64,000 bases of DNA, taken from positions 55,647-119,646 of the forward strand of contig JAILIP010000009.1 of NCBI GenBank assembly GCA_024695235.1. Reading direction: 5' to 3'. Positions within the stretch are counted from its first letter, which is position 1, and the number at the start of each line of letters is the position of its first letter. Both the position numbers and the translations under genes were made by a program. This DNA comes from Bacilli bacterium (GTDB lineage Bacteria > Bacillota_I > Bacilli_A > RFN20 > CAG-826). This document shows, piece by piece, positions 33,096 through 50,696 of this stretch. Below the pieces are notes generated by a model. The model had not been told where the DNA came from and did no database searches. It was given only the letters and a program-made list of their open reading frames with translations.

Positions 33096-35021
33096 ATGGC
33101 TAAACAATCATCAAGCAAATATCGAAAATTAGAAAGAAGCTATGCTTCAAAATCTAAAAAACTTTATTCATCAAATGATGGTAAAGAACTTTTAGATATC
33201 ATTTCTAGTGGTCGCAATAAGTATTTAAGATTAGATCGATTTGAATCATCCGCGATGGATATGACATGGATTAAACAAATCGAAGATTGTATTGATCCTT
33301 TAGGTGATATTGTTAATAACCCTAAAAAGACAATCCAAACTCTTACAGAGGTTGTACAAGTTGAGAAAGTCAAAAAGATTGGCATTGAAACAGTTCAACA
33401 TCTTTCAAGTCACACCCAATTTATTAAGACGATTGATGAAAATGGTGATGTCACTCCATCAAAACTTCTCAACGTCTACAATGATGACTTCTATGCGATT
33501 TATGAAAATAGATTCATTGCAACATTAATTCGCCATCTATTGATATTTGTTGAAAAACGTTATCAATTCGTTTTGCAAAACGCTACTCTATCTGACGTTG
33601 GAGTTCTTTATATGAAGAACCATACTGAACACGATGGAGCAGTCATCGATATTGAAACAAAAGTAAGATATTCACGTCCTGCTGAAGCAGTTGCTATTGA
33701 TAAACTAAAAGGATATCTCAAACGTATCGAAGATATTCGTAAATATCTAAAGTTCTATGCGAACACAGAATTTATGAAGATTCTCCGTCGTGAAAGAGAC
33801 GTCCGTAACCCAATCTTGCAGACAAACATTATTCGTAAGAACCCTAAGTATCATAAATGTTACTTACTCTGGCTATTTATCAATCGCTTTAAAGAAGCAG
33901 GAATTGAAGTTAAAGTCGAAGAAAACTATTCAGAACTTTCTGAAGAACAAATTCGTGAGATCAACGAAACTATGTGTTCATCGTTCCTCCTATTAAGAGG
34001 AAAAGACATGTCTCCTAGAACTGAAAAGTCCAAGAAGGCATATAAACCAGTCTTCATGAAGACATACGATGATGAAATCTATAAACCAATGGACTACAAA
34101 GGTCCAATTGAATATATCCGTGTTGATGATAAGTATCGCGAATACTCTGAATCTTTACATGTGGTTGAACCACACCCAACCAAGCAACGAAAAGCATACG
34201 ACAAAGAAAAATATGACGACAATAAAGCTCGTCGTGTTAAGAAAGCAGAGGTCGATGCTTTGCTAAAACGTAAAGAAAAAGAAAAAGCTATATATGAAGA
34301 GAACGAGAAACTTGCACTCGAACGCGAGATTGCGCGTGATAAATATGTAGAAGAAAAAGCAGAACAAGAAATCCGTGAAGAAGCTATTGCTAAAGTTGAA
34401 AAAGCACGTGAAAAACTTGTTGGTAAAGCTAATAAGGCTAAACCTGCTCCTAAGAAGAAAGTAGTAGAAAAGAAACAACCTAAGAAAGCTCCTGCCAAGA
34501 AGGCCGAACCTAAAAAGAAACCAGTCAAGAAGGCTGAGCCAAAGAAACAGCCTGTTGAAAAAGCAGAACCTAAGAAGGAAAAACCGGCTAAAAAAGTTGA
34601 GAAAAAAGTCGAAAAGAAGCCTGTTAAGAAGGTAGAGAAAAAGGTTGAACTAAAACCTGCTAAGAAGCCAGTTGTTCAAAAGAAAGAATCTAAACCAAAA
34701 GAGGCTCCTAAAAAAGCACCGGTAAAGAAGGAAACACCTAAAAAGGTGGCTAAACCAAAACCAGCGCCTAAAAAAGAAGAGCCAAAGAAGGTTGAAGAAC
34801 CAAAACCTAAGGTAGAAAAACCTGTTGAAGCTAAACCAGTTGAACCTGTCAAAGTGGTGGAACCTCCAAAAGAGGAAAAACCAGTTGAACAACCTAAACC
34901 GGTAGAAGCTCCGAAGGTTGAGCCAAAACCTGCTCCAAAGAAAGCTCCTAAACCAAAAGCGAAGAAAGAAAAACCTGAAACTTTCGCTAAGCTTTCATCA
35001 TTTAGAAGCAAGATTAAATAA
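33096..35021 (+). CDS. McrC/DUF2357-like partner protein lacking an obvious nuclease domain, with a coiled coil and a Lys/Pro-rich tail
   Basis: 641 aa with no TM segment. The central segment YAIYENRFIATLIRHLLIFVEKRY...NPKYHKCYLLWLFINRF resembles the ENRF-type core recalled from McrC-family partners of McrB-like NTPases. It is translationally coupled to the AAA+ gene (4-nt gap). The C-terminal approximately 230 aa are low complexity. Confidence 0.45.
   Translation: MAKQSSSKYRKLERSYASKSKKLYSSNDGKELLDIISSGRNKYLRLDRFESSAMDMTWIKQIEDCIDPLGDIVNNPKKTIQTLTEVVQVEKVKKIGIETVQHLSSHTQFIKTIDENGDVTPSKLLNVYNDDFYAIYENRFIATLIRHLLIFVEKRYQFVLQNATLSDVGVLYMKNHTEHDGAVIDIETKVRYSRPAEAVAIDKLKGYLKRIEDIRKYLKFYANTEFMKILRRERDVRNPILQTNIIRKNPKYHKCYLLWLFINRFKEAGIEVKVEENYSELSEEQIREINETMCSSFLLLRGKDMSPRTEKSKKAYKPVFMKTYDDEIYKPMDYKGPIEYIRVDDKYREYSESLHVVEPHPTKQRKAYDKEKYDDNKARRVKKAEVDALLKRKEKEKAIYEENEKLALEREIARDKYVEEKAEQEIREEAIAKVEKAREKLVGKANKAKPAPKKKVVEKKQPKKAPAKKAEPKKKPVKKAEPKKQPVEKAEPKKEKPAKKVEKKVEKKPVKKVEKKVELKPAKKPVVQKKESKPKEAPKKAPVKKETPKKVAKPKPAPKKEEPKKVEEPKPKVEKPVEAKPVEPVKVVEPPKEEKPVEQPKPVEAPKVEPKPAPKKAPKPKAKKEKPETFAKLSSFRSKIK
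34435..34980 (+). repeat. Lys/Pro/Glu/Val-rich low-complexity coding repeats (imperfect KKxEPKK / PKxxEKPVE units)
   Basis: The translated tail reads KPAPKKKVVEKKQPKKAPAKKAEPKKKPVKKAEPKKQPVEKAEPKKEKPAKKVEKKVEKKPVKKVEKKVELKPAKKP...EPKPKVEKPVEAKPVEPVKVVEPPKEEKPVEQPKPVEAPKVEPKPAPKKAPKPKAKK. The spurious antisense ORFs at 34094-35011 are by-products of this composition. Confidence 0.85.
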
Positions 35022-35026
35022 ATTAT

Positions 35027-35794
35027 ATGAGTGAGGAAAAATTAGAAGTAGTCGATAAACCAAAAAAAGACAAAAGCAAAGGTAAGAAGATTAAATCCAT
35101 TGTTGAATGGACCATTATTGGAATCTTCATTAGTGCTGCGTTAGTCTTGGTAGGTTTTAAGATTTACTCAAGCAAGACAAACAAGTCAATGTTTGGTTCA
35201 CAATATCCAGTCGTTCTTACTGACTCAATGGAACCAGACTACAAGGTTAAAGACGTATTGGTAGTAAAAGAAGTTGATCCCGCAGTACTTAAAGAAGGCG
35301 ATGATGTTACCTTCTATTGGGATTTAACTGGTAAAGGTGATGTTTATCCGATGACCCATAGGGTCAAGTCCATTGAATACTTCGCAAATGCCGAAGAAAA
35401 CGATGGATATCACTATACAATCATCACTCATGGTATCAATACCAAATCAAACCAATGTGGTAAGCCTGAAGGATGCGACATGACGTGGCAAACTCAAACA
35501 TTTCACGAAGATGCCCTCATTGGAAAAGTGGTTAGAAAAAGTTGGTTCTTGAAATTTGTTACTTCTGTTTGGGGATTGATTCTTTTAATTCTTCTGCCGT
35601 GTCTATACATCATGACTACAACTGTTGTAGATGCGTTCAAGAAGCTTGAAGAAGCCGATAAAGAAGCAGAACTTACTACTGTGGGCGTTGGAGAAAAACC
35701 AGATAATGATCCACTTGCAGGACTATCTGAAAATGATATTGAAGCCCTTAAGAAACAGATGCTTGATGAGATGTTAAATAAAGGAAAGAAATAG
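35027..35794 (+). CDS. SipW-like (archaeal/ER-type, S26B) signal peptidase I
   Basis: It has an N-terminal TM segment, the catalytic Ser box VVLTDSMEP, the His box PMTHRV, and a C-terminal TM segment (VWGLILLILLPCLYIMTTTVV). This is the same architecture as B. subtilis SipW as recalled (LSGSMEP/THRI), plus N- and C-terminal charged extensions. Confidence 0.75.
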   Translation: MSEEKLEVVDKPKKDKSKGKKIKSIVEWTIIGIFISAALVLVGFKIYSSKTNKSMFGSQYPVVLTDSMEPDYKVKDVLVVKEVDPAVLKEGDDVTFYWDLTGKGDVYPMTHRVKSIEYFANAEENDGYHYTIITHGINTKSNQCGKPEGCDMTWQTQTFHEDALIGKVVRKSWFLKFVTSVWGLILLILLPCLYIMTTTVVDAFKKLEEADKEAELTTVGVGEKPDNDPLAGLSENDIEALKKQMLDEMLNKGKK

Positions 35795-35795
35795 T

Positions 35796-37331
35796 ATGAA
35801 AAACAAATTGTATGCAAAACCTAAACAACTATTGGTGATTTCATCGATCGTTTTCGTGCTGGTTTTAGCAGCATCTGTTGTTTTATTCGTGCTTGGTTTC
35901 TTTACCGAACTCCCATTTATTGCATATATTTCCTTCGTGTTGTTACCACTCGCAGGTGCGTTCTTACTATTTTCAATTTTAAATTATGCGAAGAATGACA
36001 ATATGCTAAGAACACTTCAAATTGAAAACCAATATCAACTTGGCATCGGAAACTATTTCTTCAATTATCAAATGTTCTCTGAACGAGTAAAAAAATTACG
36101 TCGTAAACATGATCTTGATAAGACATATGTTATCGCATTCTCTGTATATAACATCCTCAGTAGTGGAACCATATCTTCATATCAAAGAAGATTGAATGGT
36201 TATATTGCATCATTTATTGGGGCAAAGGTTTTCCAAACCAAGATGGTAAACCCAAATGATATTGCTTTCTGTTTCCATAGAAACGTATTCATCGTGTATT
36301 CCTTTATGGATTTAGATAAGACTCGTGAATTAATCGAGATACTCCGTAAAGCAATATATGAAATCGTTAAAGAAAAGGAACTCAAAGTATTTGTTCAACC
36401 ACATTTTGGTGTTGCAGAAATTCTTCCTACAACAGACATTATCGTTGGAGTGGATAATGCCATCTTTGCTCGTAACGTAGATGAAAGAAACTTTGAAGAA
36501 TTGACATTCTACAAAGATGACTTCCGCGTCGAAACAAATAAAGATGAGATCGAAGAAATTAGAGATGCATTAAAGAACAATGAATTTGTTGTCTACTATC
36601 AACCAAAGTTTGATGTATCCAAAAAGAAATTTGTTGGCTTTGAAGCTCTTATTAGATGGAATTCACCTAGATATGGTTTACTCCTTCCGGGAAGATTTAT
36701 TGAAAAAGCTGAAATCGGTGGTCTAATCCATGAATTAGATATGTTCGTTCTTAGACAAGTTATTAAGGATTTAGAAAACCTTAAAGCAAGAAACATGAAT
36801 TTACTTCCTGTTTCTGTTAACTTCTCATTATATGAATTCTATTCCTCAGCATTTTTAACAGAATTAATTGAACTTATTGATAGATCTGCTTTAAAGCCAG
36901 AACTTATTGAAATTGAAATTACCGAAACTACAACCCAAGCCAATACATTCATGGCTACATCGATTCTTAATCGTCTCCGTAATCACGGACTCAAGATTTT
37001 AATGGATGATTTTGGAAGTGGATTCTCAAATCTTCTCCAACTTAATTCATTACCATTTGATGCAGTTAAGATTGATAAGTGCCTTATTGATGGAGTTGCC
37101 TCTGATCCTAAGACAAAAGAAATCGTTAAACTTGTTATTGGTTTATGCAAAGCCAATCAACTAGGCATTGTTGCAGAAGGTGTTGACTCCAAAGAAAAAG
37201 TCGATGTCTTAACCAAAATGGGTTGTGATGTCATCCAAGGATTCTACTATTCTGAACCTCTATCTCTATTAGAGGCCCTAGAATTTTTAGATGACAATCC
37301 GTTCACCAAGAAAGGAGGAAGTAAGAAATGA
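35796..37331 (+). CDS. Membrane-anchored c-di-GMP phosphodiesterase (degenerate GGDEF plus intact EAL)
   Basis: It has two N-terminal TM segments. The GGDEF-like domain has HRNVF in place of GGDEF. The EAL domain has all hallmark motifs: FEALIRW, VNFS, EIEITE, DDFGSGFS, KIDK, AEGVD and QGFYYS. Confidence 0.8.
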   Translation: MKNKLYAKPKQLLVISSIVFVLVLAASVVLFVLGFFTELPFIAYISFVLLPLAGAFLLFSILNYAKNDNMLRTLQIENQYQLGIGNYFFNYQMFSERVKKLRRKHDLDKTYVIAFSVYNILSSGTISSYQRRLNGYIASFIGAKVFQTKMVNPNDIAFCFHRNVFIVYSFMDLDKTRELIEILRKAIYEIVKEKELKVFVQPHFGVAEILPTTDIIVGVDNAIFARNVDERNFEELTFYKDDFRVETNKDEIEEIRDALKNNEFVVYYQPKFDVSKKKFVGFEALIRWNSPRYGLLLPGRFIEKAEIGGLIHELDMFVLRQVIKDLENLKARNMNLLPVSVNFSLYEFYSSAFLTELIELIDRSALKPELIEIEITETTTQANTFMATSILNRLRNHGLKILMDDFGSGFSNLLQLNSLPFDAVKIDKCLIDGVASDPKTKEIVKLVIGLCKANQLGIVAEGVDSKEKVDVLTKMGCDVIQGFYYSEPLSLLEALEFLDDNPFTKKGGSKK

Positions 37332-38077
37332 TTTTAATCATTGGAACAAATCATGATGATGTTCTTTACTATGAAAGCATTCTTTCATCTCCTAAAGAAG
37401 AAGTTATCCTAGATAAGTATCACGCACTCGTTGGAACAATCGCTTCTCAAGAAACAATGGTCCTTCAAGATGTGTATACATCATACTTATCAGGAATACT
37501 TGCAACATATATCATCAATCATTACTTCATTTCTTTAATCATCAATGTCGGTAGATGTGAAGCTATCTCTGATTCACTTAAAGTAGGGGATATAGTGCTC
37601 TCTGAATCTATTGTCTTTGGTGATGTCGATCAAATTGCCTCTTTGAAAGGTACGACCCTCGGTCAAATTCCTGGATATCCTCGTTCATTTGCGGTTCCAA
37701 ATAACCTAACTAGGAACTTATATACTTCTTTAGAGAAGATTGTTGATAAACGATTTGTTTTAGCAACATTTGTTTCCTCCTCGTTCTTTAGACAAAGCAA
37801 AGAAAGAGTAGGAGAAATTTCTAAGGATGAATATATTAACTCTCTAAATCAAAATATTGTCCTCGATGGAGAAAGTGCTGGCATCGCTTTAGTGAGTCAA
37901 CTCACACATGTTCCATTCATTGCTGTTAAAGTGGTGGAAGCTAAGGCTGGCAATTATACTTCCTTAGAAGATTACTTACTTGTTTTAGATGAGTATGCAC
38001 CTCTAGGCAAAGCTGTATCAAACTTCATTGGTGAGATTTCTCGTACTGATATTTTAAGAATAGGAGGTAAGTTCTAA
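37328..38077 (+). CDS. Divergent MTA/SAH-nucleosidase-fold (PNP_UDP_1) protein
   Basis: It is collinear with Pfs/MtnN (MILIIGTNHDDV, IINVG..., LKVGDIVLSE, GQIPGYP, LDGESAG, VPFIAVK), but several canonical residues are substituted: EME becomes DGE and RAISD becomes KVVEA. Confidence 0.55.
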   Translation: MILIIGTNHDDVLYYESILSSPKEEVILDKYHALVGTIASQETMVLQDVYTSYLSGILATYIINHYFISLIINVGRCEAISDSLKVGDIVLSESIVFGDVDQIASLKGTTLGQIPGYPRSFAVPNNLTRNLYTSLEKIVDKRFVLATFVSSSFFRQSKERVGEISKDEYINSLNQNIVLDGESAGIALVSQLTHVPFIAVKVVEAKAGNYTSLEDYLLVLDEYAPLGKAVSNFIGEISRTDILRIGGKF

Positions 38078-41000
38078 TGGCAAAAAAAGAAGTTATGTCT
38101 TTAAAGTCCTATTCTAAAAAGGCTTTACTAACCATTATCCTTTTATTCTTAATGGTGCTTATTCTTACCGGAGGAGTAATTGCTTCTATTTATCTAGTTT
38201 TAAACCAATTACTTCAAATTCTTATTTGTTCATTCCTAGTTTTAGGAATTCTTATTGCTCTTTTCTACATCGTCTTTATTGGTAAACGCTTATATGATCT
38301 TTTCTATAAGCAAGGAATTGAGATTACAACTCATAATATTCAAGCGTTATCAAATTTTGATAAGAGTTTTGACTATTATGAAGAAGATGAATATAAAGAA
38401 CTTAAAGATTTAAATACAACATTTAAAGATATTGCAAAAAACGTTGGGGGAAGAACAATTATCTCTCAAGGCCTTGCTCATCAAGAAGTGCCATTAAAGT
38501 ATGACGATGAGGCAAAACATTTTGTGAATGAATCATCTCTTATCAAGAATATGCATTCACTTATAATTGCTTCTGAATCATATCGAAATGCATTGATTGA
38601 TATTTCATATAACTTAGGCAAAGAGACAATTGAAGAAAAAAGTGTTTCTCGTATTTATAATACGATTAAAGAAAACCTTTCATATGAACATGTTCTAATT
38701 TCTTTTAAAGAAAACAAACAAGGATTTGTTGTATATGTTCCGGCATTTGATTCAATCAACCAATTAAAAGAAGAATTAGAATATATCATTAAAGATATTT
38801 CTCTAGTGAAAAAAGGCGGAACAACAAAACGTGCTGTAGTTGCGCACGTAAGTGTTGCTATTTATCCATATTCATCAATTGATAATCTTGTTAAAGACTT
38901 ATCTAAAGCTAGAAAAGAAAAGAAAGTTCTTAATATTTATATTCCAGAAAGAACATTTGAATTTAATAACAAATTGCTATTCTCTTCGATGAATATCAAT
39001 AACACAACTAAACTCATTGAAGATGTCTCATCAATTGTTCCAGATCCAAAACTATATGCATCTAATTTAACAAGAATTAAAAAGTGCATTGATAACACAT
39101 CTAACTATTATGGCTTTGATGCCGCAGGATATCTTGGATATGACAAAGATAACGAAAAATATATAAATGTATACTCATTCACATCTAAAGACGAAGTCAT
39201 ATTCAAAGATTCAGTCGATATATCTAAGAAATTTATCCAAACTCTTAACGCTGTTAAAGATAGCGATTCAAGTTACTACTTCTCAAGCAGAAAACATATT
39301 AATAACAGACTAGCGTTATATGTCGATCAATACCGCATCCGTTCAGGTTTATTTTACATCCTATCGCGTGATGATAAACCATTCGGTGTGTTATATTTCC
39401 TTAATCGTCATAAAGACTTATCCTTTGACGCATATATGAAGGAATCTTTGATTACTTCATGTCATGTCTTAGGTAGCGTTTTAGAAAAGATGGACGCAAG
39501 AAGAAATGTTAATGTTGCAGATAAGCGTCTCAGTGAGATATTAAAAATCTCTGGAATGACCCTATATTCGGTCAATAAGGCCAATTATGAGATTGTTAGG
39601 TATTCTCAATCACTTTTGCGTTTATTCCCGTCATTTGACCCTTCTATGCCTTGTTATAAGGCTCTATATGGTTTAAATAAACCTTGTAAGAACTGTCCAC
39701 TTAAGCAAAAACGTCATATGATAAGTGAAATTAATTCACATAAATATGAAGTATATCCTGTCTTTGCTAACAAGTATGATCCAACTGCTCACTTATTAAT
39801 TCAACCTCAAAAAGGTGATGATGTATCTGAAAGATTTGATGATGAAACATTACTTTCAAGCTTTGCTTCATTTAGAACGGATTTATCTAACCAATTGCTT
39901 TCTAACGTAAGTGGCAAGATTCTCCTACTTAAAGTCAAGAACATCAAAGATGTTATATCCTCAGTTAAAAACGGTGGATATGTCACACTTATCAAAGAGT
40001 TCTCTGATAGAGTATTAACTCATTATGTAGACTTTGCTGACGTATATCAATTTAATAGTTCAACGCTTGCGTTGATTCTTCATGATAAGAGCGATGAAGA
40101 CATCGTTTCTATCTGCCAAGAAATCTGTGATATTGTTCAATCAGAAAAGGTTGATGATACACATCTATCATTTATGTATTTAGTTAAGAACTACTCCGCT
40201 AATGATACAAATGACGCACTTCAAAAAACATTGCTTGATGCGCTTGATAAATACAAAGATGAAAATGAAGATGAAATCGTCTTTGTTGATACTGAATATA
40301 AGCGTAGTGCATCTTTAGACGGATACCTTCTTGAACAACTATTGTCCTCCTTTGGAGAAAAGACATATGATATGGAATTCACTCCATTATTATCAAACAA
40401 CACCCGTCTTGTTTATGGAGTTGAAATCACTCCTAATATTGTCGATAGAAATGTAAATAAACGATTAGATATTTCTAAGGCAATAGAAGTGGCACATAAT
40501 AAGGGCTTTGGAGACATCTATAGTGATGGAATGTTATTGTATTTAGATGATCTAATTAGTAGATATACGTATACCTTCTTTATGTCCACAGATATATCAT
40601 GTATGTCACTTAAAGTTGATCATAATTTCATCAATCAAGATCGCTTTATAGAGCATCTAAAAGAGATATATTCTAAGCATCAATTGCCTAAAGGATTTAT
40701 TGCCTTTGAGGTGAGTGAAGATGATGTCTACGAACACGAAAAAGAATACAAAGAAATCGTTAGAAAAGCTGCTCAAATTGGTGTTAATTTCATAGTCTAT
40801 GACTATGAAGGTAACAAATATACAGTTGCTTCATTAGGCGAACTTGGCTTTAAAGAAATTAAGTTCTCTAAGAAGATTTTGTCCTCTATTAATGATCGAG
40901 ATTCATATAACCAAACAACCTATATGTGGCTTGAAGCTATCAAGCAACAAATGAAGGTCAATTTCACTGGTGTTGAATCTCGTAAATCATCAGAAGCTAT

Positions 41001-41124
41001 CGTCTTTGAAGGTTACGATTGCGGAGTTCAAGGTGACTATTACTTCAAGCCAATGGATGAAGTAAAAGCCTTTGAAGTTATTAGAACTCGTAACATGAAA
41101 GACAAAGATAATCTTGATAACTAA
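38077..41124 (+). CDS. Large membrane-anchored protein with degenerate GGDEF and degenerate EAL domains (candidate c-di-GMP receptor)
   Basis: 1015 aa with two closely spaced N-terminal TM segments and a Cys motif PCYKALYGLNKPCKNCP. The GGDEF-like segment ILLLKVKNIKDV...VYQFNSSTLALILHD has no GGDEF. The EAL-like C-terminus has substituted motifs: GVEITPN for EAL, FEVSED, VYDYEGN for DDFGTG, IKFSK for KIDK, TGVES and QGDYYFKP. Confidence 0.55.
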   Translation: MAKKEVMSLKSYSKKALLTIILLFLMVLILTGGVIASIYLVLNQLLQILICSFLVLGILIALFYIVFIGKRLYDLFYKQGIEITTHNIQALSNFDKSFDYYEEDEYKELKDLNTTFKDIAKNVGGRTIISQGLAHQEVPLKYDDEAKHFVNESSLIKNMHSLIIASESYRNALIDISYNLGKETIEEKSVSRIYNTIKENLSYEHVLISFKENKQGFVVYVPAFDSINQLKEELEYIIKDISLVKKGGTTKRAVVAHVSVAIYPYSSIDNLVKDLSKARKEKKVLNIYIPERTFEFNNKLLFSSMNINNTTKLIEDVSSIVPDPKLYASNLTRIKKCIDNTSNYYGFDAAGYLGYDKDNEKYINVYSFTSKDEVIFKDSVDISKKFIQTLNAVKDSDSSYYFSSRKHINNRLALYVDQYRIRSGLFYILSRDDKPFGVLYFLNRHKDLSFDAYMKESLITSCHVLGSVLEKMDARRNVNVADKRLSEILKISGMTLYSVNKANYEIVRYSQSLLRLFPSFDPSMPCYKALYGLNKPCKNCPLKQKRHMISEINSHKYEVYPVFANKYDPTAHLLIQPQKGDDVSERFDDETLLSSFASFRTDLSNQLLSNVSGKILLLKVKNIKDVISSVKNGGYVTLIKEFSDRVLTHYVDFADVYQFNSSTLALILHDKSDEDIVSICQEICDIVQSEKVDDTHLSFMYLVKNYSANDTNDALQKTLLDALDKYKDENEDEIVFVDTEYKRSASLDGYLLEQLLSSFGEKTYDMEFTPLLSNNTRLVYGVEITPNIVDRNVNKRLDISKAIEVAHNKGFGDIYSDGMLLYLDDLISRYTYTFFMSTDISCMSLKVDHNFINQDRFIEHLKEIYSKHQLPKGFIAFEVSEDDVYEHEKEYKEIVRKAAQIGVNFIVYDYEGNKYTVASLGELGFKEIKFSKKILSSINDRDSYNQTTYMWLEAIKQQMKVNFTGVESRKSSEAIVFEGYDCGVQGDYYFKPMDEVKAFEVIRTRNMKDKDNLDN

Positions 41125-41144
41125 TTTAAATGATTATCTGAATG

Positions 41145-41167
41145 AGTAGGCTTATTGCCTACTTTTT
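41145..41167 (+). terminator. Intrinsic terminator ending operon 1
   Basis: AGTAGGC-ttatt-GCCTACT followed by TTTTT. Confidence 0.8.
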
Positions 41168-41279: not shown

Positions 41280-41308
41280 TTGTATTGTGTGCGCATAGTA
41301 TATAAAAT
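41280..41308 (+). promoter_or_regulatory. Promoter TTGTAT-N17-TAAAAT driving riboswitch 2 and operon 2
   Basis: -35 at 41280-41285 and -10 at 41303-41308. The predicted start site lies approximately 10 nt upstream of the aptamer. Confidence 0.45.
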
Positions 41309-41324
41309 ATACTTGAACTTGATA

Positions 41325-41412
41325 AAGGCAAAACTACAGTGATGTAGTGACGCAAAGCTAAAGGGTCTTGATTAAGATAGCCAGTTGCCAATAATGGTGA
41401 CTGGCTTTTAAA
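41325..41412 (+). promoter_or_regulatory. c-di-GMP-I (GEMM-I)-like riboswitch 2, aptamer plus terminator-type expression platform
   Basis: GGCAAAACUACA-GUGA-UGUAGUGACGCAAAGCUAAAGGGUCUUGAUUAAGAUAGCCAGUUGCC (41327-41389). GGCAA/UUGCC closes P1. 57 of 63 positions are identical to copy 1, with one compensatory C-G to U-A change in the GNRA hairpin. 41379-41390 can alternatively pair with 41395-41406 (12 bp, loop AUAA) followed by UUUU. Confidence 0.75.
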
Positions 41413-41437
41413 AATATCAGTCAAGAAAGGTAAGCTA

Positions 41438-44400
41438 ATGAATCGTTTCCAAAAAAGAATAATGATCATCGCTGCAGCAATCTGCAATGTTTCGCTTACC
41501 CTTACAGCAGCTGGTGTTGCAACATATGCTTGGTTTAAAGCTAAAGCAAATCTTGTAGCCGTTTCAAATAATCTCTCAATCAGTGTTGCCGACCCTGATG
41601 AAAAATTTGAATATGACATTTATAAATATGATGATAACCTTAAGGCTGGCAAAAAATTTACTGATCCTAGTGATTTTACCTTGCCTGATTATGATACATA
41701 CATCACCGAGAAAAACGTTTACGCGAACTGCATCATACGCGCTGAAGTCACAGTCCCCTCATTAAATACATCCGATGAGTATTTCACCATTGATGTCACA
41801 AGACTTGCTTCAAACTACTTCATTACAAGTACAACAAAGGTTGATAAAAAGACATCTAATGTTATTCAATTAAAATCTGCTGTCTATTCTTTCTTAGAAA
41901 GTGGCGAAACCGATTTTACAGAAAACACTAATATGATTGGACACGGAGATATTGACGAAACCTCTCCTGCGACAATCTATTCAACTGTCAGTGACTATTT
42001 TGCCACTAAACAAACTCCAACAACATTCGTTCCTATTAGATATGATGATAATGGTAATCCTATTGTTAATCGTGGAGATGACGAGAACAAAAGAACCATT
42101 ACCCTTATTCCAGACTTACCTACAGGTTATACAATCACAAAGGTAATTATCTATCTCGAATGTTCTTATCACGAAGATTTAGTTGATAAGTATGTTGAGT
42201 CTAATTCTACAGATTCTGCTGCAACAAAATATGCACTTCAAGGCGATGTTTCGTCAATTGTTTTTTCACATAAAGAAAAAGTTGCAAAAACATCACAAGC
42301 AACTGGTAAATACATTAAGGTAGAATCTACTGCTGCTTTAGCTAACGGTCAGTATTTGCACGCGTACGAGACGGATGAATCCACAGGCGCCGCAAAACTT
42401 ATGAAGGGTAGTTTAGCAACCAGTGATAAAGCTGCTACCAACCCATCCGGAATCTTTGTAGCAGATAACATTAGAGATGCAACGATAAACTCACTACCAT
42501 CCAACGAGCCAAAATCAATTGACACCACCGACGCCATTGATAGTGATGCATTTGCTTACACTAAAAAGAGTGGTGAAAATTCTATAAATACATTTAAGTC
42601 AAAAGCTGGTTACTACATTGGTAACGATACCCAATCTAATGGTATTGCGACTAACGATGACTATGCCAATGGTTACAAACACCAAATTACTTTCAGTGGA
42701 GATCATGCAAACGTTGATGCTTATGGTACTGGCTCAAACAACATGAGATTAGGATACTATACATCTGGAAATGGCAGATTCTATTATCAAAAGGATTCTG
42801 GAAAACAAACAGACCTGTTTAGATATACCGAAAACGTTGCAGAAATGCCCACATTAACCGGTATAGAAATTACAACTGCAACAACTGCCACCTCATTCTA
42901 CACATCACAAAAATTTGCTATTACTAATTTAGTTGTAACAGCCACCTATTCCAATGACTCATCTGCAATAGTTACGAAGTCATGTACTTTCACTTCAGAT
43001 ACCGATCCAGCTACACTAGTGCCTGGCACTACTACTTTGAGCACTGTGACCCAATCAAAGAATATTTATGTCAGTTATTCTGAAGGCGGAGTAACGATTA
43101 ATGGTGAAGGTGTAGCTGCTTTAACATACACAATTAGTGTTGCTCAAGATGAACTAAATTCAATTTCTGCAACTGCTCCAACCAAATCTTATTATTTTGT
43201 CAATGAAGAGTTTTCATCAGCAGGCATGACTGTTACCGCTCATTATAAATCTGGCAATCCTGTCAACATTGAATTAAATAATCCTAATTTAACAATTACT
43301 GCTCCTAGCATGTCATCAGTTAGTGATCCATCTGTTAATGTCTCATATACTGATGGAGTTACAAAATCTACTACTGTTACAATTCACATTGTCGCAAGGT
43401 ACTTAAGCATCAATAAGAACAGTGCATCTGTTGCAGAGGGCGGAGATGTAACAATCACTGTAGATCATAATCAGGATGTCACAATCACAAATACTCCTGG
43501 AACTGGAACTGTTTCCTTAAATCCTAGTTCAATTGAGTACACAGGAACAAATAAGGCTAGAACAACCACTGATGTAACGGTTCATGGCGAGACAGCTGGC
43601 ACCGTAACTCTCACATTTTCTTCCAGTGGATGTTCACCTGTTTCATGCAATATTACTGTTACCGCTACACCTGCTGATGTGATTACTATGACCGCAGATG
43701 AAGTCATCACCGATTCGGGTTATAAGGCATATGCTACAAACATTTCAAAGGATTACAATGGTACAGGAAGTGAATCAAAAGGATGGCTTGTAACATTTGG
43801 CGGAAATAACTACACATTTGGTACAAATAATAATGCTACCAATTTTGATAATTGTAATTTGTCTTCGTATGACAAGTATGCTGTCAGTACAGTGGCAACT
43901 ACTTCAGAAACCGCTGCTGCGTTTGCAAATACGAGCGTGATGCACAAGATTAGGAATATCTCGTTCACATGTACTGGTGGTACAAATTTGAACACAACAA
44001 CCGCATATATAATCTATTCTGCTGATAATATTACTTTTTCAAAACCAACATTAGCTTCCGGTTCTACATCACAAGGTACTACTGTGACTTCTGGAACAAC
44101 GTATACCTTTAAATTTAATTCGGCATTGGCCGGATATTTTGCGATTGTATTTAAATCAAGTCTTTCTAGCGTTGGCAACTGGAAGATAGAGGGCCTATCT
44201 GTAACTTACAACCCTAAAGCTCTTGATCATATCGCTATCACTGGAGATGTTTCGAATAAATCTTACACAAGTGGACAATCGTTAAATATGTCAGGTTTAG
44301 TTGTTACAGCGTATTACACAGATAATACAAACGAAGTTGTAACAGGAAGTGCAACATTAACCTCTTCTGTAGATCCATTAACCACTGGTACTACATCAGT

Positions 44401-45220
44401 TACTGTTACTGCTTCTTACACATTCGGCAGCTCTACAGAGACGGCGACTAAGAGCGTTACTGGTTTAACAGTTACAGCACCGTCGACGCTAATAACTGCA
44501 ATTACTTTAACTGCTGCAAGTTCATCAATTGTAGCTGGGAATACTACAACAGTTACAATTGGAATTACACCAAGCAGCGCTTCGTCACAAAATATTACAG
44601 TCACTTTAACTGCTGGCGGCGGAACATATGGTAGATTTGATAATTCGACCGGCAGCACAACAACAAAAGATGTTCAATGTAGTAGTGGTTCTGGCTCGTT
44701 TACTGTTTATGGTGTTGCAGCTGGTTCATTCAAACTTCAAGCTGCAGCAAATGATGGATCTAGTATAACTTCCAATCAAATCACTATTACAGTTACCGCT
44801 CCATCCAGTATTACATTCACAACTAATAGATCTAATCTATCGCCAACTTGGTCTTCCTCTGGTACGTATACCGTTACTTCAAGCGGTGAGACTATAACGT
44901 TTAGTAATTTGACTGCATCCAGCAATAGTGATATTCAAATGGCAAAGAATTCCACAGCAACTAGTACTGAATTCTCAGGAAATATTTCTCAAATCATATT
45001 GTATGGTTGTGCACATACAGGTTCTAAGAGCGATGGTTCATTTACTGTTAGCGGTAGTGCGAATGGATCGTCGTGGACAGAGGTGTACTCAATTTCAAAT
45101 ATGAGTCCTTCTCAAGGAAACATCACTATTTCAGTTTCTTCGGGGTATAAGTATTTTAAAGTTACAGTTGGCAGCTCACGTGTCCTTAAGATTACTGGAA
45201 TTAAGGTTACATATTCATAA
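41438..45220 (+). CDS. Giant secreted adhesin-like protein with a SipW-cognate-like signal peptide, Ig-like repeats and two jelly-roll/CBM-like modules
   Basis: 1260 aa, N-terminus MNRFQKRIMIIAAAICNVSLTLTAAGVATYAWFKAKANL. It has repeated Ig-like units of the type L(T/D).I.(I/A)T...K.(Y/F)....(F/L)...G(L/M).VTA.Y and Big_2-like units (SASVAEGGDVTITV; IVAGNTTTVTIGITPSSAS). It has no LPXTG, no C-terminal TM segment and no lipobox. SD AAAGG lies upstream. Confidence 0.75.
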   Translation: MNRFQKRIMIIAAAICNVSLTLTAAGVATYAWFKAKANLVAVSNNLSISVADPDEKFEYDIYKYDDNLKAGKKFTDPSDFTLPDYDTYITEKNVYANCIIRAEVTVPSLNTSDEYFTIDVTRLASNYFITSTTKVDKKTSNVIQLKSAVYSFLESGETDFTENTNMIGHGDIDETSPATIYSTVSDYFATKQTPTTFVPIRYDDNGNPIVNRGDDENKRTITLIPDLPTGYTITKVIIYLECSYHEDLVDKYVESNSTDSAATKYALQGDVSSIVFSHKEKVAKTSQATGKYIKVESTAALANGQYLHAYETDESTGAAKLMKGSLATSDKAATNPSGIFVADNIRDATINSLPSNEPKSIDTTDAIDSDAFAYTKKSGENSINTFKSKAGYYIGNDTQSNGIATNDDYANGYKHQITFSGDHANVDAYGTGSNNMRLGYYTSGNGRFYYQKDSGKQTDLFRYTENVAEMPTLTGIEITTATTATSFYTSQKFAITNLVVTATYSNDSSAIVTKSCTFTSDTDPATLVPGTTTLSTVTQSKNIYVSYSEGGVTINGEGVAALTYTISVAQDELNSISATAPTKSYYFVNEEFSSAGMTVTAHYKSGNPVNIELNNPNLTITAPSMSSVSDPSVNVSYTDGVTKSTTVTIHIVARYLSINKNSASVAEGGDVTITVDHNQDVTITNTPGTGTVSLNPSSIEYTGTNKARTTTDVTVHGETAGTVTLTFSSSGCSPVSCNITVTATPADVITMTADEVITDSGYKAYATNISKDYNGTGSESKGWLVTFGGNNYTFGTNNNATNFDNCNLSSYDKYAVSTVATTSETAAAFANTSVMHKIRNISFTCTGGTNLNTTTAYIIYSADNITFSKPTLASGSTSQGTTVTSGTTYTFKFNSALAGYFAIVFKSSLSSVGNWKIEGLSVTYNPKALDHIAITGDVSNKSYTSGQSLNMSGLVVTAYYTDNTNEVVTGSATLTSSVDPLTTGTTSVTVTASYTFGSSTETATKSVTGLTVTAPSTLITAITLTAASSSIVAGNTTTVTIGITPSSASSQNITVTLTAGGGTYGRFDNSTGSTTTKDVQCSSGSGSFTVYGVAAGSFKLQAAANDGSSITSNQITITVTAPSSITFTTNRSNLSPTWSSSGTYTVTSSGETITFSNLTASSNSDIQMAKNSTATSTEFSGNISQIILYGCAHTGSKSDGSFTVSGSANGSSWTEVYSISNMSPSQGNITISVSSGYKYFKVTVGSSRVLKITGIKVTYS

Positions 45221-45231
45221 AAGGAGAAAAG

Positions 45232-48200
45232 ATGTTTAAGTTTTTGAAGCAACACAAATTCACAATCTTACTCACAGCATTAAATGCTCTCCTTTTAAGT
45301 GCGGCTGTTATCGGAACTGTCGCTTGGTATTCAATCAAAATGGAGATTGATCCACCTACTGGTACAACTCAAACAAGTGGTATTTTAAAATCATATTTTG
45401 ATTCTGGAAGTGGTACCCAGGGTGATCCTTATGTAATCACAAGGCCTATTCATTTTTATCACCTATCATATCTTCAAAATTCTGATTATTTCGGGGATAG
45501 CACAAAATATTTCCGTTTTGGGAAAAACATTGATGGCGACGCTAATGGAGAATATGAATTCTACAATTATGGTGATGATGGCAAACTTCTTGCTGGAACT
45601 TCAAAAGAATTAAATGTTAAGTATTACAGTGGCACAAATGCCTTATATCCAATCGGCACGCCTCAACATCCATTTAAATCAGTTATCTATGGAACAAACC
45701 TTACTGTTAAAAATGTACACATCAAAGGTGATGGTTTAGCAGATATAGGTGTCTTTGGATATGTTCACGAAGATGCTGAAATACATAACTTGTATTTTGA
45801 TACAGTATCTATTGATACAGGAACGCCTACATCATCTAATGGTACTCACTCCCACACAAGTGGAAAATACAACGTTGGCTACTTAGCCGGTCATATACAA
45901 TCTAGTGATTCTTTTGACAATGTCTATGTGAATAAATGCGAAATTTACAATAGTGGCATCCCTAACATCCAAGGTTTAACTGAATATGGATATTTTGGTA
46001 AATGCGATTCTATTGAGACACCTTTAACTACATCGAGTACAGATGAATATAGAATTGATCCAGCTACTGTCCAAGGATATTTCAAAGACAACTGGACATC
46101 TGGCAAGCAATTGTCTAGTAAGTCTGTCACCACAAGAAACACAGAGTATACTGTGAAAGGAACAGATTTCACATCTGTAGTTAATAGTAGCGATAATAAC
46201 CATAATGCAAGTACATCTTACACAATGAAAGGTACGGCATCGAGTGTTCCGCACAATTATTCATTATCTACTATTGGCCATCAGGGTGAAGAAACCAGTT
46301 ATGAGATTTCATACTCCAGCAGTCACTTGAATATGGACGTAAGTACCACCGTTATTCCGGATGGAGTAAATATTAATACTATTACAGAACCAGGTTCTTA
46401 CATGTATTGGGATACATCCGCTTCAAAATGGGTATATTATGTCATTTCTCCAGGTGGCTCAACATCTTCTAAAACCTTTAACGTTTTCTCATTGTCCTAT
46501 CAATATAACGGCAATACGTACTATGTTTATGTTAGTGGCAATGTTACTGAAAGCAATGGTGTAAAAAATTACTCAGGATTGTCACTTGCTGTTTCTTCTA
46601 CAGTGCCATCGATTAGCAATAGACGTTATTGGTTCTCTTTGAGATCGTCAAACACCGATTATGGTATAACATCAATTGCTACTAATTCTGGCGCTGAACG
46701 CTACTATTTATTCTGTCCAGATGTTGATGCTTATGCCTATATTACAAGCAACACAACAATTAATTTCGGCAATTATTCAACTGTGAAGGACTTATCGGGC
46801 ACAGGATCATCTAAGACATTCACTTTTGATGGTGTTGATACAAAGATTGAATGGGTCGGTTCTAGTAATACGAACTATGGTTTCCAAGCAACATCATCCT
46901 CTATTACAGCAATAAGACCTGTTAGTGGAAATGATGCAACTATTTTCGCACTTAATGGTACAGGTGCTCGCACTTCGGAAAGCTCATCTGATACAGATAA
47001 GTATCAATTGGTTACGGATACATCTCAGTTGAAGAATAATCAAGAATACTCTATCGGCTATGATGCTGGTGATTTGCACAGGTTGATTGGCGAGCAAAGA
47101 ACTAATAATAGAACCGCAGTTACAGTAACTGTCGATTCTGGAACAACTTTAAATTCTGCATCTGGTGTTAGAAAATTTACTTTGGGTGTCGATGATGAAA
47201 CAATAACTGGGTCAACTGTATATTCGTTCTTTGACCAAGCAGAATATACTGGTAATGGTGGCTATTTGTATGCGGCATCATCATCGCATAACTACTTAAG
47301 AACTCAACAAACAAACAATTTAAACGGATTATGGTCGATAACTTTTGGCAGTGGCGGAGCAGCAACAGTAACAGCACAAGGTAGTAACTCTCGAAACCTA
47401 CTTAGATACAATTCGTCAGATGATTTGTTTGCATCTTATGGTCAAGGTCAGAAACTAGTTAAAATCTATAAATATATTGCCGGGTCTGGAACTATCCAAA
47501 CCGCAAATCATGCGGAATTGATTGCAACCGTAGAAGATGGAACTGATGTCGATCCAGTACCGTATGATGCATTTTATGATGCTGATACAACCGGTGGAAC
47601 AAACTATCAATCCATTACTTTTACTCGTGAACGCATTACATGGGATTTTACAAATCATTTAATAACCATTTCCCCACAATCCAACCAACATTATGAAAGA
47701 ATAACATCAATTGACGATCTTTCAGATGGTGAATATTTAATTGTTACAGAATCAGGCGGGAAGGCTCTTAATGGTCAAGGAAGTGGTGGCGCGAGCGCAT
47801 CTGTCACAATAACCAACCATACTATTCCTTACAATGAAACAACAACAGGGTATGCTTTTACATTGGATTCTGAGAATGGAAGATTCCTGGCAAAAGACAG
47901 CTACTATATATATAGTGCTGGCAGTGGTACAAGCATGTCTTATACTCAAACAGAATCAGACCTAGTTAACCACTCGATTTCTTTTGATGGTAACAATGTT
48001 GTAATTAAATCGCCAAACAATAATAGAAAATTGGCTTACTATTCATCAGGACCTAATTTTAGATACTATGCTTCGATTGGCAGTGGCCAAGAAGTTCAAT
48101 TGTACAAACTTATTAGTGAAACAACCGAACCTGAATATATTGCTGATACAATAGCTACTTTGGATAACAAATATAATAAAGATAAAATTGATGCTGTTGG

Positions 48201-49122
48201 TACAGTAACCTATTCATCTTCATCGATGACATTTGCATCAAATCTTAGCAATATCAAAGCAGTTAGTAAATGGAATACAGAAAATAGTGAGCTTGGTATT
48301 GGTGCCAAATTCTATCAAACAAGATACTTATCTAATTCCTTAGTGTTATTTGTCCCTAACCAAGGTGCATTAGATTTCGGAACAATTCATTTGGAATCAA
48401 CTGGAACAGCCCCTGTATTTGTGAAAGGATCAGATAATGGCATAACTAATTTTGAACCATCAATTGGATTTACTGATGCGAGAATCGGCTGTACTGATGA
48501 TTTGGTGGGAGACAGCAACCATAGTTATACTTTAAGTCTTAACATGCATAATATATTCAACCTATGTTATGCAGCATTAGATTCGGATGGTAAAATACTT
48601 GCATCATATGATACTGATGGCGCTAAAGTGCTTCCTGCAACCGCAATCAATCCATCTAATATTGCAACATTTGTACTAGCAATAAGTGTTCCTTCTTCAT
48701 CAATGTCTGTTTCAGCAATCAACTTAAAGATTCGTCATCTTGAAGGCGAAATGGCGAACTTCAGTAATGTTGGTTATAGAAACGCAACGTACACTTCTGG
48801 TGCTACGATTGTTGATTCAATCGTAACAGACAATGTCAATACAACCACAAGTACTATCGCAAGAGAAGCTATTGATTTTAGAATTGATAGTGGTTCTAAT
48901 TCTAATAAGATCTTCTTTAGAATGATGTATAATGCTACGACGAAAACGTACGATATTACATTCAAATGCACGTCGAACACACACATACTAATCTTTAATT
49001 TTGATGCTGAAAGAGTAAAACTGTATTTGAACGATTCGCAATTAACTGAATCTTATCATGATGAAACTGTGTCAGGAACAGCTTGGACGTATCCAGTAGC
49101 ACTTCCGTCAAACTATAGTTAA
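45232..49122 (+). CDS. Giant secreted protein with a SipW-cognate-like signal peptide, a beta-helix/GLUG-like region and two copies of a recurrent approximately 160-aa module
   Basis: 1296 aa, N-terminus MFKFLKQHKFTILLTALNALLLSAAVIGTVAWYSIKME. It has IGVFGYVHEDAEIHNLYF (GLUG-like). It has no C-terminal anchor. A strong SD AAAGGAG lies upstream, 11 nt after the upstream stop. Confidence 0.75.
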   Translation: MFKFLKQHKFTILLTALNALLLSAAVIGTVAWYSIKMEIDPPTGTTQTSGILKSYFDSGSGTQGDPYVITRPIHFYHLSYLQNSDYFGDSTKYFRFGKNIDGDANGEYEFYNYGDDGKLLAGTSKELNVKYYSGTNALYPIGTPQHPFKSVIYGTNLTVKNVHIKGDGLADIGVFGYVHEDAEIHNLYFDTVSIDTGTPTSSNGTHSHTSGKYNVGYLAGHIQSSDSFDNVYVNKCEIYNSGIPNIQGLTEYGYFGKCDSIETPLTTSSTDEYRIDPATVQGYFKDNWTSGKQLSSKSVTTRNTEYTVKGTDFTSVVNSSDNNHNASTSYTMKGTASSVPHNYSLSTIGHQGEETSYEISYSSSHLNMDVSTTVIPDGVNINTITEPGSYMYWDTSASKWVYYVISPGGSTSSKTFNVFSLSYQYNGNTYYVYVSGNVTESNGVKNYSGLSLAVSSTVPSISNRRYWFSLRSSNTDYGITSIATNSGAERYYLFCPDVDAYAYITSNTTINFGNYSTVKDLSGTGSSKTFTFDGVDTKIEWVGSSNTNYGFQATSSSITAIRPVSGNDATIFALNGTGARTSESSSDTDKYQLVTDTSQLKNNQEYSIGYDAGDLHRLIGEQRTNNRTAVTVTVDSGTTLNSASGVRKFTLGVDDETITGSTVYSFFDQAEYTGNGGYLYAASSSHNYLRTQQTNNLNGLWSITFGSGGAATVTAQGSNSRNLLRYNSSDDLFASYGQGQKLVKIYKYIAGSGTIQTANHAELIATVEDGTDVDPVPYDAFYDADTTGGTNYQSITFTRERITWDFTNHLITISPQSNQHYERITSIDDLSDGEYLIVTESGGKALNGQGSGGASASVTITNHTIPYNETTTGYAFTLDSENGRFLAKDSYYIYSAGSGTSMSYTQTESDLVNHSISFDGNNVVIKSPNNNRKLAYYSSGPNFRYYASIGSGQEVQLYKLISETTEPEYIADTIATLDNKYNKDKIDAVGTVTYSSSSMTFASNLSNIKAVSKWNTENSELGIGAKFYQTRYLSNSLVLFVPNQGALDFGTIHLESTGTAPVFVKGSDNGITNFEPSIGFTDARIGCTDDLVGDSNHSYTLSLNMHNIFNLCYAALDSDGKILASYDTDGAKVLPATAINPSNIATFVLAISVPSSSMSVSAINLKIRHLEGEMANFSNVGYRNATYTSGATIVDSIVTDNVNTTTSTIAREAIDFRIDSGSNSNKIFFRMMYNATTKTYDITFKCTSNTHILIFNFDAERVKLYLNDSQLTESYHDETVSGTAWTYPVALPSNYS

Positions 49123-49128: not shown

Positions 49129-49154
49129 AGCACGTTCAAAATAACGTGCTTTTT
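49129..49154 (+). terminator. Intrinsic terminator ending operon 2
   Basis: AGCACGTT-caaaat-AACGTGCT followed by TTTT. Confidence 0.8.
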
Positions 49155-49265
49155 CATATGTGTTACACATGTATACACGCTTAAATTATTTTGATTATTA
49201 ATCTTATTAGCATATAATGAGAATGCATATTTAGTTTTAATGTAGACTTTTATAGGAGATTAGAT

Positions 49266-50696
49266 ATGGAAAAAGAAAATATAATCGAAGAAGAAAAGCC
49301 AAGTAAATGGACATTTGGTAAATACCTTAAAGGTATTGCTAAATATAAATGGTGGGTTGTTGGATCCACTGTCTTAGGTACAGTCTTAGGTTTTGTTGGG
49401 TTTAAATTCGTTTTAAATCCAATTCGTAAGAATCTAACTGCTCAATATTCATATAACTTAGCAGGAACATACGAAGATGAAGATACAATTCGCTTTGTCG
49501 ATGGTACAGTCTTTAACTCATATGACCTTACCAATATCGAAAACTTGAAGAAAGTTAAAGATAGCAAGGAAGAATATAGCAGAATCGATGTTGAAAAAAT
49601 CATCACCGACGGTGGTATCACAATCACAAAGGATATCATTGAAAAAGATACAAGTACTACAACCGTTAAAGATAAAACAACAGAGAATGTTTCTATTACA
49701 TACACTCTTGTTGCAAAAGCTAGATGCTTCCCAAATGATAAAGTTGGAAAAGAATTCTTATATGATTTAATTACTCTTCCAAAATCATTATCAAACGCTG
49801 CTATTAGTAACTACCATGTTGGTTCATATTTCTCACCAGTTTTTGAAACATTATCATTTGAAACTCAAGTTGAACAACTTGGTAAGCAATATGATGCCAA
49901 TATTGAAGTGTATACTGCATTATCAGAGAAGTTCTCAACATCTGCCGCTGTTGATAGTGATGGTACAAAACTCTATCAAGCATTGAATGCTTTCCAAAGT
50001 AAGTACTATTCAGCAGGTTCTCAAGTCTTCTATAAAGAACTTGAATCCTCATTAGCAGCTAATAAGTATGTTAAATACAATGCAGATGATATTGATCAAG
50101 CAATTGCAGATATTAAAGCTACTGCTAATTCAAACATTGAATCAGTTGATAGACTTAAAGATCAAATTGCTACATATGAATCAATTCTCACCCAATGGAC
50201 AAATATCAAAACATACATCACCGATGAATCAATCCTCCATGAAAAGATTATTGAACTCAGTGACAAGATTGCTGCCTTAAAAACAGAACTATTCAACGTC
50301 ATTAAAGAATTAAACAAATTTGGATATGAATGTGATAGTGATGGCAAATGGGAATATAAAGCAGCTTTAAAAGGTTCACGTTATTACCTTGAACAAATCA
50401 AAGCCGATCCAACAAGTGAAGAATCAGTTGCATTCGCAAACGGATGCAAAGCATTCACTAAACGTATTGCTGACTACCATGATGTTCTTGAAGATGATAG
50501 TGAAGTCACAACAAGTGTTCTTAGATACTGCTATGACTCATATCAAAACAGAGTCTCCATTCTTGGAACAGGTTATGTTGTTACAGCTAAAGGCATCTCT
50601 GACTTCATTGGTCTAGCAGCCGGATTAGTCCTTGGATTTGCAATCTCCTCATTAATCTGCGCTTCCATCTACATCAACAAAGAAGAAGAGAAATAA
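49266..50696 (+). CDS. Wzz/polysaccharide co-polymerase-like chain-length determinant (no kinase domain)
   Basis: 476 aa with PCP topology: an N-terminal TM segment (WWVVGSTVLGTVLGFVGF), a large coiled-coil-rich ectodomain, and a C-terminal TM segment (GLAAGLVLGFAISSLICASIYI). Confidence 0.5.
   Translation: MEKENIIEEEKPSKWTFGKYLKGIAKYKWWVVGSTVLGTVLGFVGFKFVLNPIRKNLTAQYSYNLAGTYEDEDTIRFVDGTVFNSYDLTNIENLKKVKDSKEEYSRIDVEKIITDGGITITKDIIEKDTSTTTVKDKTTENVSITYTLVAKARCFPNDKVGKEFLYDLITLPKSLSNAAISNYHVGSYFSPVFETLSFETQVEQLGKQYDANIEVYTALSEKFSTSAAVDSDGTKLYQALNAFQSKYYSAGSQVFYKELESSLAANKYVKYNADDIDQAIADIKATANSNIESVDRLKDQIATYESILTQWTNIKTYITDESILHEKIIELSDKIAALKTELFNVIKELNKFGYECDSDGKWEYKAALKGSRYYLEQIKADPTSEESVAFANGCKAFTKRIADYHDVLEDDSEVTTSVLRYCYDSYQNRVSILGTGYVVTAKGISDFIGLAAGLVLGFAISSLICASIYINKEEEK

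Follow-up and report, generated by a model that had tools for sequence, protein, structure and literature searches.

Two similar RNA leaders stand before two neighboring transcription units in a 64,000-nucleotide (nt) stretch of DNA from an uncultured Bacilli bacterium (assembly GCA_024695235.1, contig JAILIP010000009.1; hereafter the window). They raise the question of whether the second leader, which lies around positions 41325-41412 and is called copy 2 here, is a working riboswitch, which ligand it senses, and in which direction it acts on the genes behind it. A first-pass annotation had taken copy 2 for a class I riboswitch for cyclic di-GMP (c-di-GMP) with a terminator-type expression platform, and this identification is supported by Rfam matches, ligand-contact nucleotides, the leaders of orthologous loci, and covariation. 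Judged from the sequence, copy 2 is most probably a class I c-di-GMP riboswitch whose aptamer overlaps a terminator and which serves as an ON switch for two downstream genes encoding large secreted proteins; both the binding of the ligand by copy 2 and the direction of switching in vivo are what we infer from this arrangement.

A cmscan search of the window against Rfam 15 returned three features: a tRNA, the paralogous leader further upstream (copy 1, 28519-28594, forward strand) as RF01051 with 57.7 bits, and copy 2 as RF03167. The copy 2 match spans 41318-41393 on the forward strand, belongs to the c-di-GMP-I (GEMM-I) clan CL00126, and lies above the gathering score (60.7 bits, E 7.4e-12); our own covariance model gives it 100.2 bits. 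The aptamer consists of a P1 of about 3 base pairs (bp; 41319-41321 with 41389-41391), P1a (41328-41353) with the GNRA loop GUGA at 41339-41342, and the aptamer helix P1b (41356-41386), all on the same strand, and a script check found all 21 modeled pairs to be standard in copy 2. Its junction reads GACGCAAAGC, identical to the RF01051 consensus line of cmscan, just as the first-pass annotation had stated. The orthologous aptamers, which score 56.5-66.7 bits on RF01051, carry GCAA, GCGA, or GUAA in place of GUGA, all of them GNRA loops; as in the class at large, the loop may dock into a receptor in P1b. By alignment to the Rfam consensus, the equivalents of G20, A47, and C92 of Vc2 are G41327, A41354, and C41388, all canonical. 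They are the ligand-contact nucleotides of Vc2 (PMC6140456). Vc2, the class I structural reference from Vibrio cholerae, thus has the same three contacts as copy 2, and the three-helix architecture and the GNRA tetraloop on P1a are common to both (PMC6140456); in contrast to Vc2, which has no termination mechanism (PMC6366702), copy 2 has a terminator platform and a much shorter P1.

The modeled fold was examined across a family of related aptamers. A covariance model built from seven aptamers was run on the window plus 95 fetched loci and yielded 121 matches, only two of them in the window. Standard pairs fill 94.2% of the cells in the alignment of these 121 aptamers, compared to 24-41% when the partners were slid, and 485 cells are changed on both sides, with such double-sided changes in 12 pairs. 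None of 500 shuffles reached the observed covariation score, and the GNRA hairpin covaries in six of its six pairs. The same alignment was used to judge a 5-bp P1 formed by GGCAA and UUGCC, as drawn in the first-pass annotation. These segments are complementary in sequence and RNAfold draws the pairing for the isolated aptamer, but it shows no covariation among the 121 sequences (score 0.034, versus 0.037 on average in shuffles), pairs no better than 491 of 500 shuffles do, and breaks wherever the sequence varies. It would also take up G20, the P1a GC pair, the P1b strand, and C92, and we rejected it.

The 3' part of the aptamer runs directly into a hairpin with a U run (41379-41409, forward strand) that is conserved in orthologues. 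Its arms, AGCCAGUUGCCA (41379-41390) and UGGUGACUGGCU (41395-41406), enclose the loop AUAA and form 12 bp, including two G.U pairs (-18.8 kcal/mol, z = -6.3). The 5' arm is made up of the 3' strand of P1b, G70 and C71 (C71 being the C92 equivalent, 41388), and the 3' strand of P1. Because these aptamer nucleotides are the hairpin arm, the aptamer and terminator folds are mutually exclusive in our models, which predicts an ON switch. The consensus aptamer fold has a predicted energy of -10.4 kcal/mol, compared to -24.9 to -31.8 kcal/mol for the terminator-containing folds; since the latter are far more stable, termination would be the default and the decision would be taken co-transcriptionally. 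The aptamer ends 45 nt 5' of the ATG (41438-41440) on the sense strand, and the ribosome-binding site (GAAAGG, 41425-41430), read from the sequence like the start codon, is outside both structures and not obviously sequestered in the predicted folds. In a crude scan, 48 of 118 related aptamers showed this overlap of aptamer and terminator.

We propose that the leader is transcribed from its own promoter at about 41280-41308 and that, when the ligand is absent, the more stable terminator would form and transcription would end after about 92-95 nt. Binding of c-di-GMP to the nascent aptamer would keep the shared nucleotides in the aptamer and block the terminator, so that RNA polymerase could read into both genes (41438-49122). 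Copy 2 would thereby be an ON switch that works by repression and de-repression, and high c-di-GMP would turn on the production of surface or matrix proteins.

Comparison with orthologous loci bears on whether this design is maintained. Relatives of the 1260-amino-acid (aa) protein encoded by the first downstream gene are rare: a search of 5.8 billion proteins gave only 12, all of metagenomic origin and 31-53% identical, a pattern scan of 185,579 species genomes found no relative, and looking up the exact protein sequence returned no record. The nearest named relatives of the aptamer or operon are metagenome-assembled genomes labeled Bacilli, Erysipelotrichaceae, Candidatus Enterosoma, and Mollicutes. 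Every fetched locus with a homologue of the 1260-aa protein has a c-di-GMP-I aptamer directly upstream, which is complete in L001, L003, L006, L007, and L009/L010 and cut by the contig end in L002, L004, L005, and L008; in L006 it is kept although the upstream genes differ. The homologues with both the aptamer and the overlapping terminator come from six distinct metagenomic loci and are 40-53% identical at the protein level. In an alignment of seven orthologous sequences, aptamer pairs are 93.9% and terminator pairs 95.2% paired, compared to 10-50% in slid controls, with double-sided changes in three aptamer pairs and two terminator pairs. The terminator tracks changes of the aptamer strand, for example as AGCU/AGCU in L001, and is part of the minimum-free-energy fold in all five orthologous leaders folded. 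In orthologues, four to five U follow the hairpin, and then A/T-rich sequence. A metagenome scan for the conserved promoter together with the start of the aptamer found nothing, and a second scan added 15 more distant loci, which serve as context only. Five independent metagenomic contigs, those of L002, L004, L005, L008, and L133, begin, at position 1, inside the aptamer, as expected from assembly breaks at near-identical repeats; this indirectly indicates that those genomes also carry at least two copies.

We then compared the two leaders of the window with each other. The whole aptamers (41318-41393 and 28519-28594) align without gaps, and so does the 63-nt core (41327-41389 and 28529-28591), for which MAFFT confirmed the six differences previously counted, all of them transitions. 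Mapped on the Rfam structure lines and then checked by script, two of the six form the compensatory pair that the first-pass annotation had pointed out: within the GUGA hairpin, C28537-G28548 of copy 1 is replaced by U41335-A41346 in copy 2. At the foot of this hairpin, a third difference gives copy 2 an A-U pair where copy 1 has an A.C mismatch; another turns A-U into G-U in P1b, one falls in the P1b loop, and one affects contact position 20, just 5' of the GC pair (A28529 in copy 1, G41327 in copy 2). An extra compensatory change lies outside the core, where a P1 pair is flipped from A-U (copy 1) to U-A (copy 2), and no pair is broken by any of the differences. The compensatory pair had been offered as direct evidence of selection on RNA structure, which is more than it can bear by itself: when six random transitions were simulated in the core, the probability of at least one compensatory pair was 0.13, that of keeping as many pairs 0.04, and that of both 0.009. 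The two-copy comparison is on its own suggestive, and the weight is carried by the family-wide covariation. Between the arms of its downstream hairpin, copy 1 has a loop insertion at the place previously described, although its length by MAFFT is 30 nt and not about 32.

The two leader types also have separate histories. The first gene behind copy 1 has homologues in 39 clusters, and the copy-1-type leader, defined by the long loop insertion and a TTGGGACA box, was found in L131-L135 and, at greater distance, in L050, L014, L029, and L122. This box, followed by A/T-rich sequence, stands just 3' of the copy-1-type terminator in the window (28656-28671, TTGGGACAATAATAAT) and in L131, L135, L050, L014, and L136-L139; it is not present in copy 2. 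Both leader types occur separately in organisms that share only 40-70% protein identity, and the compact, copy-2-type leader and the copy-1-type leader are, by this distribution, both old and separately maintained. The concern attached to the first-pass annotation, namely that the two leaders might be a recent DNA duplication with no constraint in orthologues, is thereby answered, as both types are kept before their own gene families.

Several observations weigh against a ligand-controlled terminator. The 121-sequence alignment was fitted to the covariance model, and part of P1b could not vary in it, since the loci were gathered with the pattern GACGCAAARCTAWAGGGTC; in the orthologue set of seven, which is too few sequences, covariation is indistinguishable from shuffles. 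P1 has only about 3 bp and is unpaired in some orthologues (helix 1 is 78.6% paired). The hairpin itself was found as the first-pass annotation had drawn it, but the UUUU said to follow it is short: the first of the four U (41406-41409) is the last nucleotide of the stem, so that UUU and then A5 follow, and the hairpin (41379-41406) escaped a terminator scan whose threshold is at least 5 T in 8. In Clostridioides difficile, moreover, 16 c-di-GMP riboswitches are predicted, of which 5 do not function, and every functional one of class I is an OFF switch (PMC6366702), and for this reason neither the direction nor the function of copy 2 can simply be extrapolated. The weak U tract and the missing terminator call would suit a genuine c-di-GMP-I aptamer that acts as an OFF switch, or through translation or RNA stability, rather than by ligand-induced anti-termination, and there is a precedent in V. 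cholerae, where both class I riboswitches act without termination and respond in opposite directions (PMC6366702). We nevertheless regard this as unlikely, as the 5' arm of the hairpin is the 3' strand of the aptamer in every orthologue, so that the ligand can only disfavor the hairpin, the ribosome-binding site lies in neither structure, and the overlap design is common among Bacillota relatives, often with longer U tracts. Copy 2 could also be a decaying remnant of a duplicated copy 1 leader with no regulatory role, given that the cores are 90% identical, that the terminator arms and the GGCUUUUAAAAA tail are common to both copies, and that a sizeable share of the C. difficile predictions proved non-functional (PMC6366702). 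Decay is hard to reconcile with the conservation of each leader type upstream of its own gene family at 40-70% protein identity, with differences that repair one mismatch, compensate once more in P1, and break no pair, or with an aptamer that accompanies the large-protein genes even where the upstream context differs (L006), and we consider it highly improbable.

As to the ligand, the top-scoring Rfam model for copy 2, and also for the L007 orthologue (60.3 bits), is RF03167, the c-di-GMP-I-GGC class with a proposed altered ligand specificity. The overall fold is common to this variant and copy 2, and the position that defines the variant was taken from the two Rfam consensus lines in the cmscan output: after GACGC, RF03167 has G (GACGCGAA), whereas RF01051 has A (GACGCAAA). 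In copy 2 the sequence is GACGCAAAG; its nucleotide 41354 is the A of the parent class RF01051, and membership in RF03167 was dropped because the defining nucleotide is A and not G. The gathering score of 59 is exceeded by 1.7 bits, a surplus that plausibly comes from the P1 pairs being part of that model, and the near-identical orthologues L003 and L009 fall to RF01051 (59.7-65.8 bits). One lower-scoring match of the same clan, above its own threshold, was suppressed in the cmscan output; by elimination it can only be RF01051 on copy 2, because the RF01051 score of copy 1 falls under the RF03167 threshold. By its sequence, then, copy 2 is a canonical class I c-di-GMP aptamer and its GGC label a marginal scoring artefact, and there is next to no chance that it senses another ligand as a member of the GGC class. 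Scarcely more credible is a GEMM-Ib-like aptamer for cyclic GMP-AMP in its 3',3' form (cGAMP) or for both cyclic dinucleotides. Position 20 does vary within the group (86 G and 23 A among the 121 relatives), the copy-2-type orthologues L001 and L006 carry A20, and the G20A form of Vc2 binds both c-di-GMP and 3',3'-cGAMP, as some natural A20 aptamers do (PMC6140456). Copy 2, on the other hand, has G41327, the state that discriminates against cGAMP in Vc2 (PMC6140456); A at position 20, which is necessary and insufficient for GEMM-Ib, is found in copy 1 (A28529). Within the window, no cGAMP synthase was seen, and the neighboring diguanylate cyclase (25887-27026) has canonical GHPQGD and GGDEF motifs, the former fitting the guanine-specifying GHxxGD. 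On the basis of this motif, which we take to be non-Hypr, the cGAMP-making Hypr type was ruled out for this protein. Since a canonical GGDEF cyclase is adjacent and two EAL-domain proteins are encoded in the copy 1 operon, the gene content clearly indicates that c-di-GMP is made and degraded in this organism.

The nucleotide at position 20 separates the two leaders of the window and, to a large extent, the two leader types. Copy-1-type leaders have A in six of seven lineages (including L131 at 9804-9889, L135 at 3200-3285, L050 at about 250-325, L029, and L122) and G in L014 only; copy-2-type leaders are divided between G (the window, L003, L007, L009) and A (L001, L006). The GEMM-Ib cGAMP riboswitches and Vc2 G20A (PMC6140456, PMC7266159) have the same fold, and their A20 is shared by copy 1 and most copy-1-type orthologues, whereas copy 2 has G20. 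The paralogous leaders may thus differ in ligand range or affinity, and control of the two operons by one second messenger, as put forward in the first-pass annotation, is likely but not assured, given the A20 of copy 1 and most orthologues. The G/A difference between paralogous leaders also provides a natural pair for studying how a contact nucleotide tunes the response to the ligand.

Copy 2 and its genes form a separate transcription unit, as the upstream operon ends in a hairpin and the leader has its own promoter. The terminator-like hairpin that ends the nine-gene operon (41144-41164, forward strand) lies 20 nt past the stop of the gene for a 1015-aa EAL-domain protein and has an 8-bp stem, GAGTAGGC/GCCTACTT, followed by TTTCG. 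A sigma-A-type promoter is inferred at 41280-41308 on the same strand, with the -35 element TTGTAT (41280-41285), a 17-nt spacer, and the -10 element TAAAAT (41303-41308), which would place the transcription start at about 41315-41316. TTGnAn and TATAAAAT are kept at equal spacing in five of six orthologous leaders; a promoter scan did not call this site, whose -35 matches at only 3 of 6 positions. A 15-nt palindrome, GTATATAAAATATAC (41298-41312), lies over the inferred -10 and is nearly invariant in four orthologous leaders; it may reflect nothing more than the promoter, or else serve as an operator at which a protein regulator adds a layer of control to the riboswitch. A second terminator-like hairpin (49129-49150, forward strand; 8-bp stem, then TTTTC) closes the unit, which therefore comprises two genes, and a promoter-like site with 10 of 12 matches follows it at 49191-49218.

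Both genes of the unit lie on the forward strand and encode Thr/Ser-rich proteins. The first (41438-45220) encodes the 1260-aa secreted protein, whose N-terminal hydrophobic segment closes with TYAWF and which has one Ig-like domain of the Big_3 family. The second (45232-49122) follows the first in all orthologous loci; it encodes a 1296-aa protein whose N-terminus is of the same type (TVAWY) and which matches no Pfam family. The Big_3 match is the one significant match in the two proteins, a relaxed Pfam search found nothing beyond it, NCBIfam gave no match, and neither protein has an LPXTG-type wall-anchor motif. Homologues also match Big_2 and Flg_new. A sequence search of the Protein Data Bank gave a best E of about 0.07, to pilin fragments. 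The AlphaFold2 model of the orthologue P0005 is beta-rich and of low confidence (mean predicted local distance difference test 57.6, predicted template-modeling (TM) score 0.31), and Foldseek with this model returned generic strings of Ig-like domains with query-length-normalized TM-scores of at most 0.14. We consider it justified to call these proteins large secreted surface or matrix proteins; an adhesin function is neither confirmed nor excluded. The "giant adhesin" operon of the first-pass annotation is accordingly unproven, with a single Big_3 match, no wall anchor, and generic Ig-like Foldseek matches.

The copy 1 operon (28701-41124, forward strand) comprises nine genes downstream of copy 1 and encodes a candidate SipW-like signal peptidase, an AAA-type ATPase, two small TxAW[FY] proteins, and two EAL-domain proteins. 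The latter are membrane proteins, encoded at 35796-37331 (with an EALxR motif) and 38077-41124. The peptidase candidate (35027-35794) resembles archaeal-type/SipW signal peptidase I, with 44 bits on TIGR02228, below the cut-off of 51.85. The motif T-x-A-W-[F/Y] closes the N-terminal hydrophobic segment in five proteins of the window (27196-27882, 29446-30495, 30497-31561, 41438-45220, and 45232-49122) and is invariant, also in orthologues; the model for SipW-cognate signal peptides, TIGR04088, matched one of these five N-termini, with 12.4 bits and thus below its cut-off of 19. This set of genes suggests a dedicated secretion or fiber system resembling SipW/TasA or BsaA, with its parts split over the two riboswitch units. 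In such an arrangement, copy 1 may gate the operon for peptidase, ATPase, and EAL proteins, and copy 2 the two large TxAW[FY] substrates. It is a speculative and rather unlikely extension that the two riboswitches are twin control points of an undescribed c-di-GMP-governed secreted fiber or surface protein system, in which the A20 machinery operon and the G20 substrate operon differ in threshold or specificity. If true, the A/G difference could mean c-di-GMP plus cGAMP for one leader and c-di-GMP only for the other, and the result would be a staged response instead of simple co-regulation, in a system of uncultured gut and rumen Bacilli-like Bacillota.

The closest parallels come from two other Bacillota. 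Bc2, a class I riboswitch of Bacillus thuringiensis BMB171, precedes the collagen adhesion gene cap and acts on it as an ON switch (PMC4933901, PMC6366702). Like copy 2, it is a class I aptamer in a 5' leader before the gene for a large surface protein, and its default termination is relieved by c-di-GMP, as we propose for copy 2 from sequence. The two differ in that the 3' strand of the copy 2 aptamer is itself the 5' arm of the terminator, with no need for a separate anti-terminator, and in that the proteins regulated by copy 2 have no collagen-binding or LPXTG features. C. difficile has 12 class I and 4 class II c-di-GMP riboswitches, with ON switches upstream of the predicted adhesins CD2831 and CD3246 and of pilA1 (PMC6366702). 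Several c-di-GMP riboswitches per genome thus coordinate surface and adhesion genes there, as the two copies of the window suggest for this organism; the C. difficile adhesin ON switches are of class II and its functional class I members are OFF, whereas copy 2 would be a class I aptamer wired as an ON switch. It is already established that c-di-GMP riboswitches of class I exist, occur several times in one genome, can control termination in the ON sense, and are associated with surface proteins, and copy 2, while correct in substance as a finding, is of ordinary significance and adds little to riboswitch biology. Its value lies in an annotation clue, in that it places two sparsely distributed large secreted proteins, together with the nine-gene operon, in the c-di-GMP regulon of an uncultured Bacillota lineage, and membership in this regulon suggests that they act in surface attachment or in the building of a matrix.

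Tandem c-di-GMP-I aptamers, a known arrangement for class I, occur within about 100-200 nt of each other in L137, L142/L143, L146, L148, L018, and L087, and none were seen in the window. Both riboswitch units are embedded in a surface-polysaccharide gene cluster (19964-25813 and 49266-52978), with dTDP-sugar genes and glycosyltransferases upstream of them and, downstream, a gene (49266-50696) for a protein of 476 aa that carries hydrophobic segments close to its two ends, together with a Bac_transf and a Wzy_C gene. Further upstream lie secA, prfB, uvrB, and a dinB-like gene, which shows that the window is chromosomal DNA.

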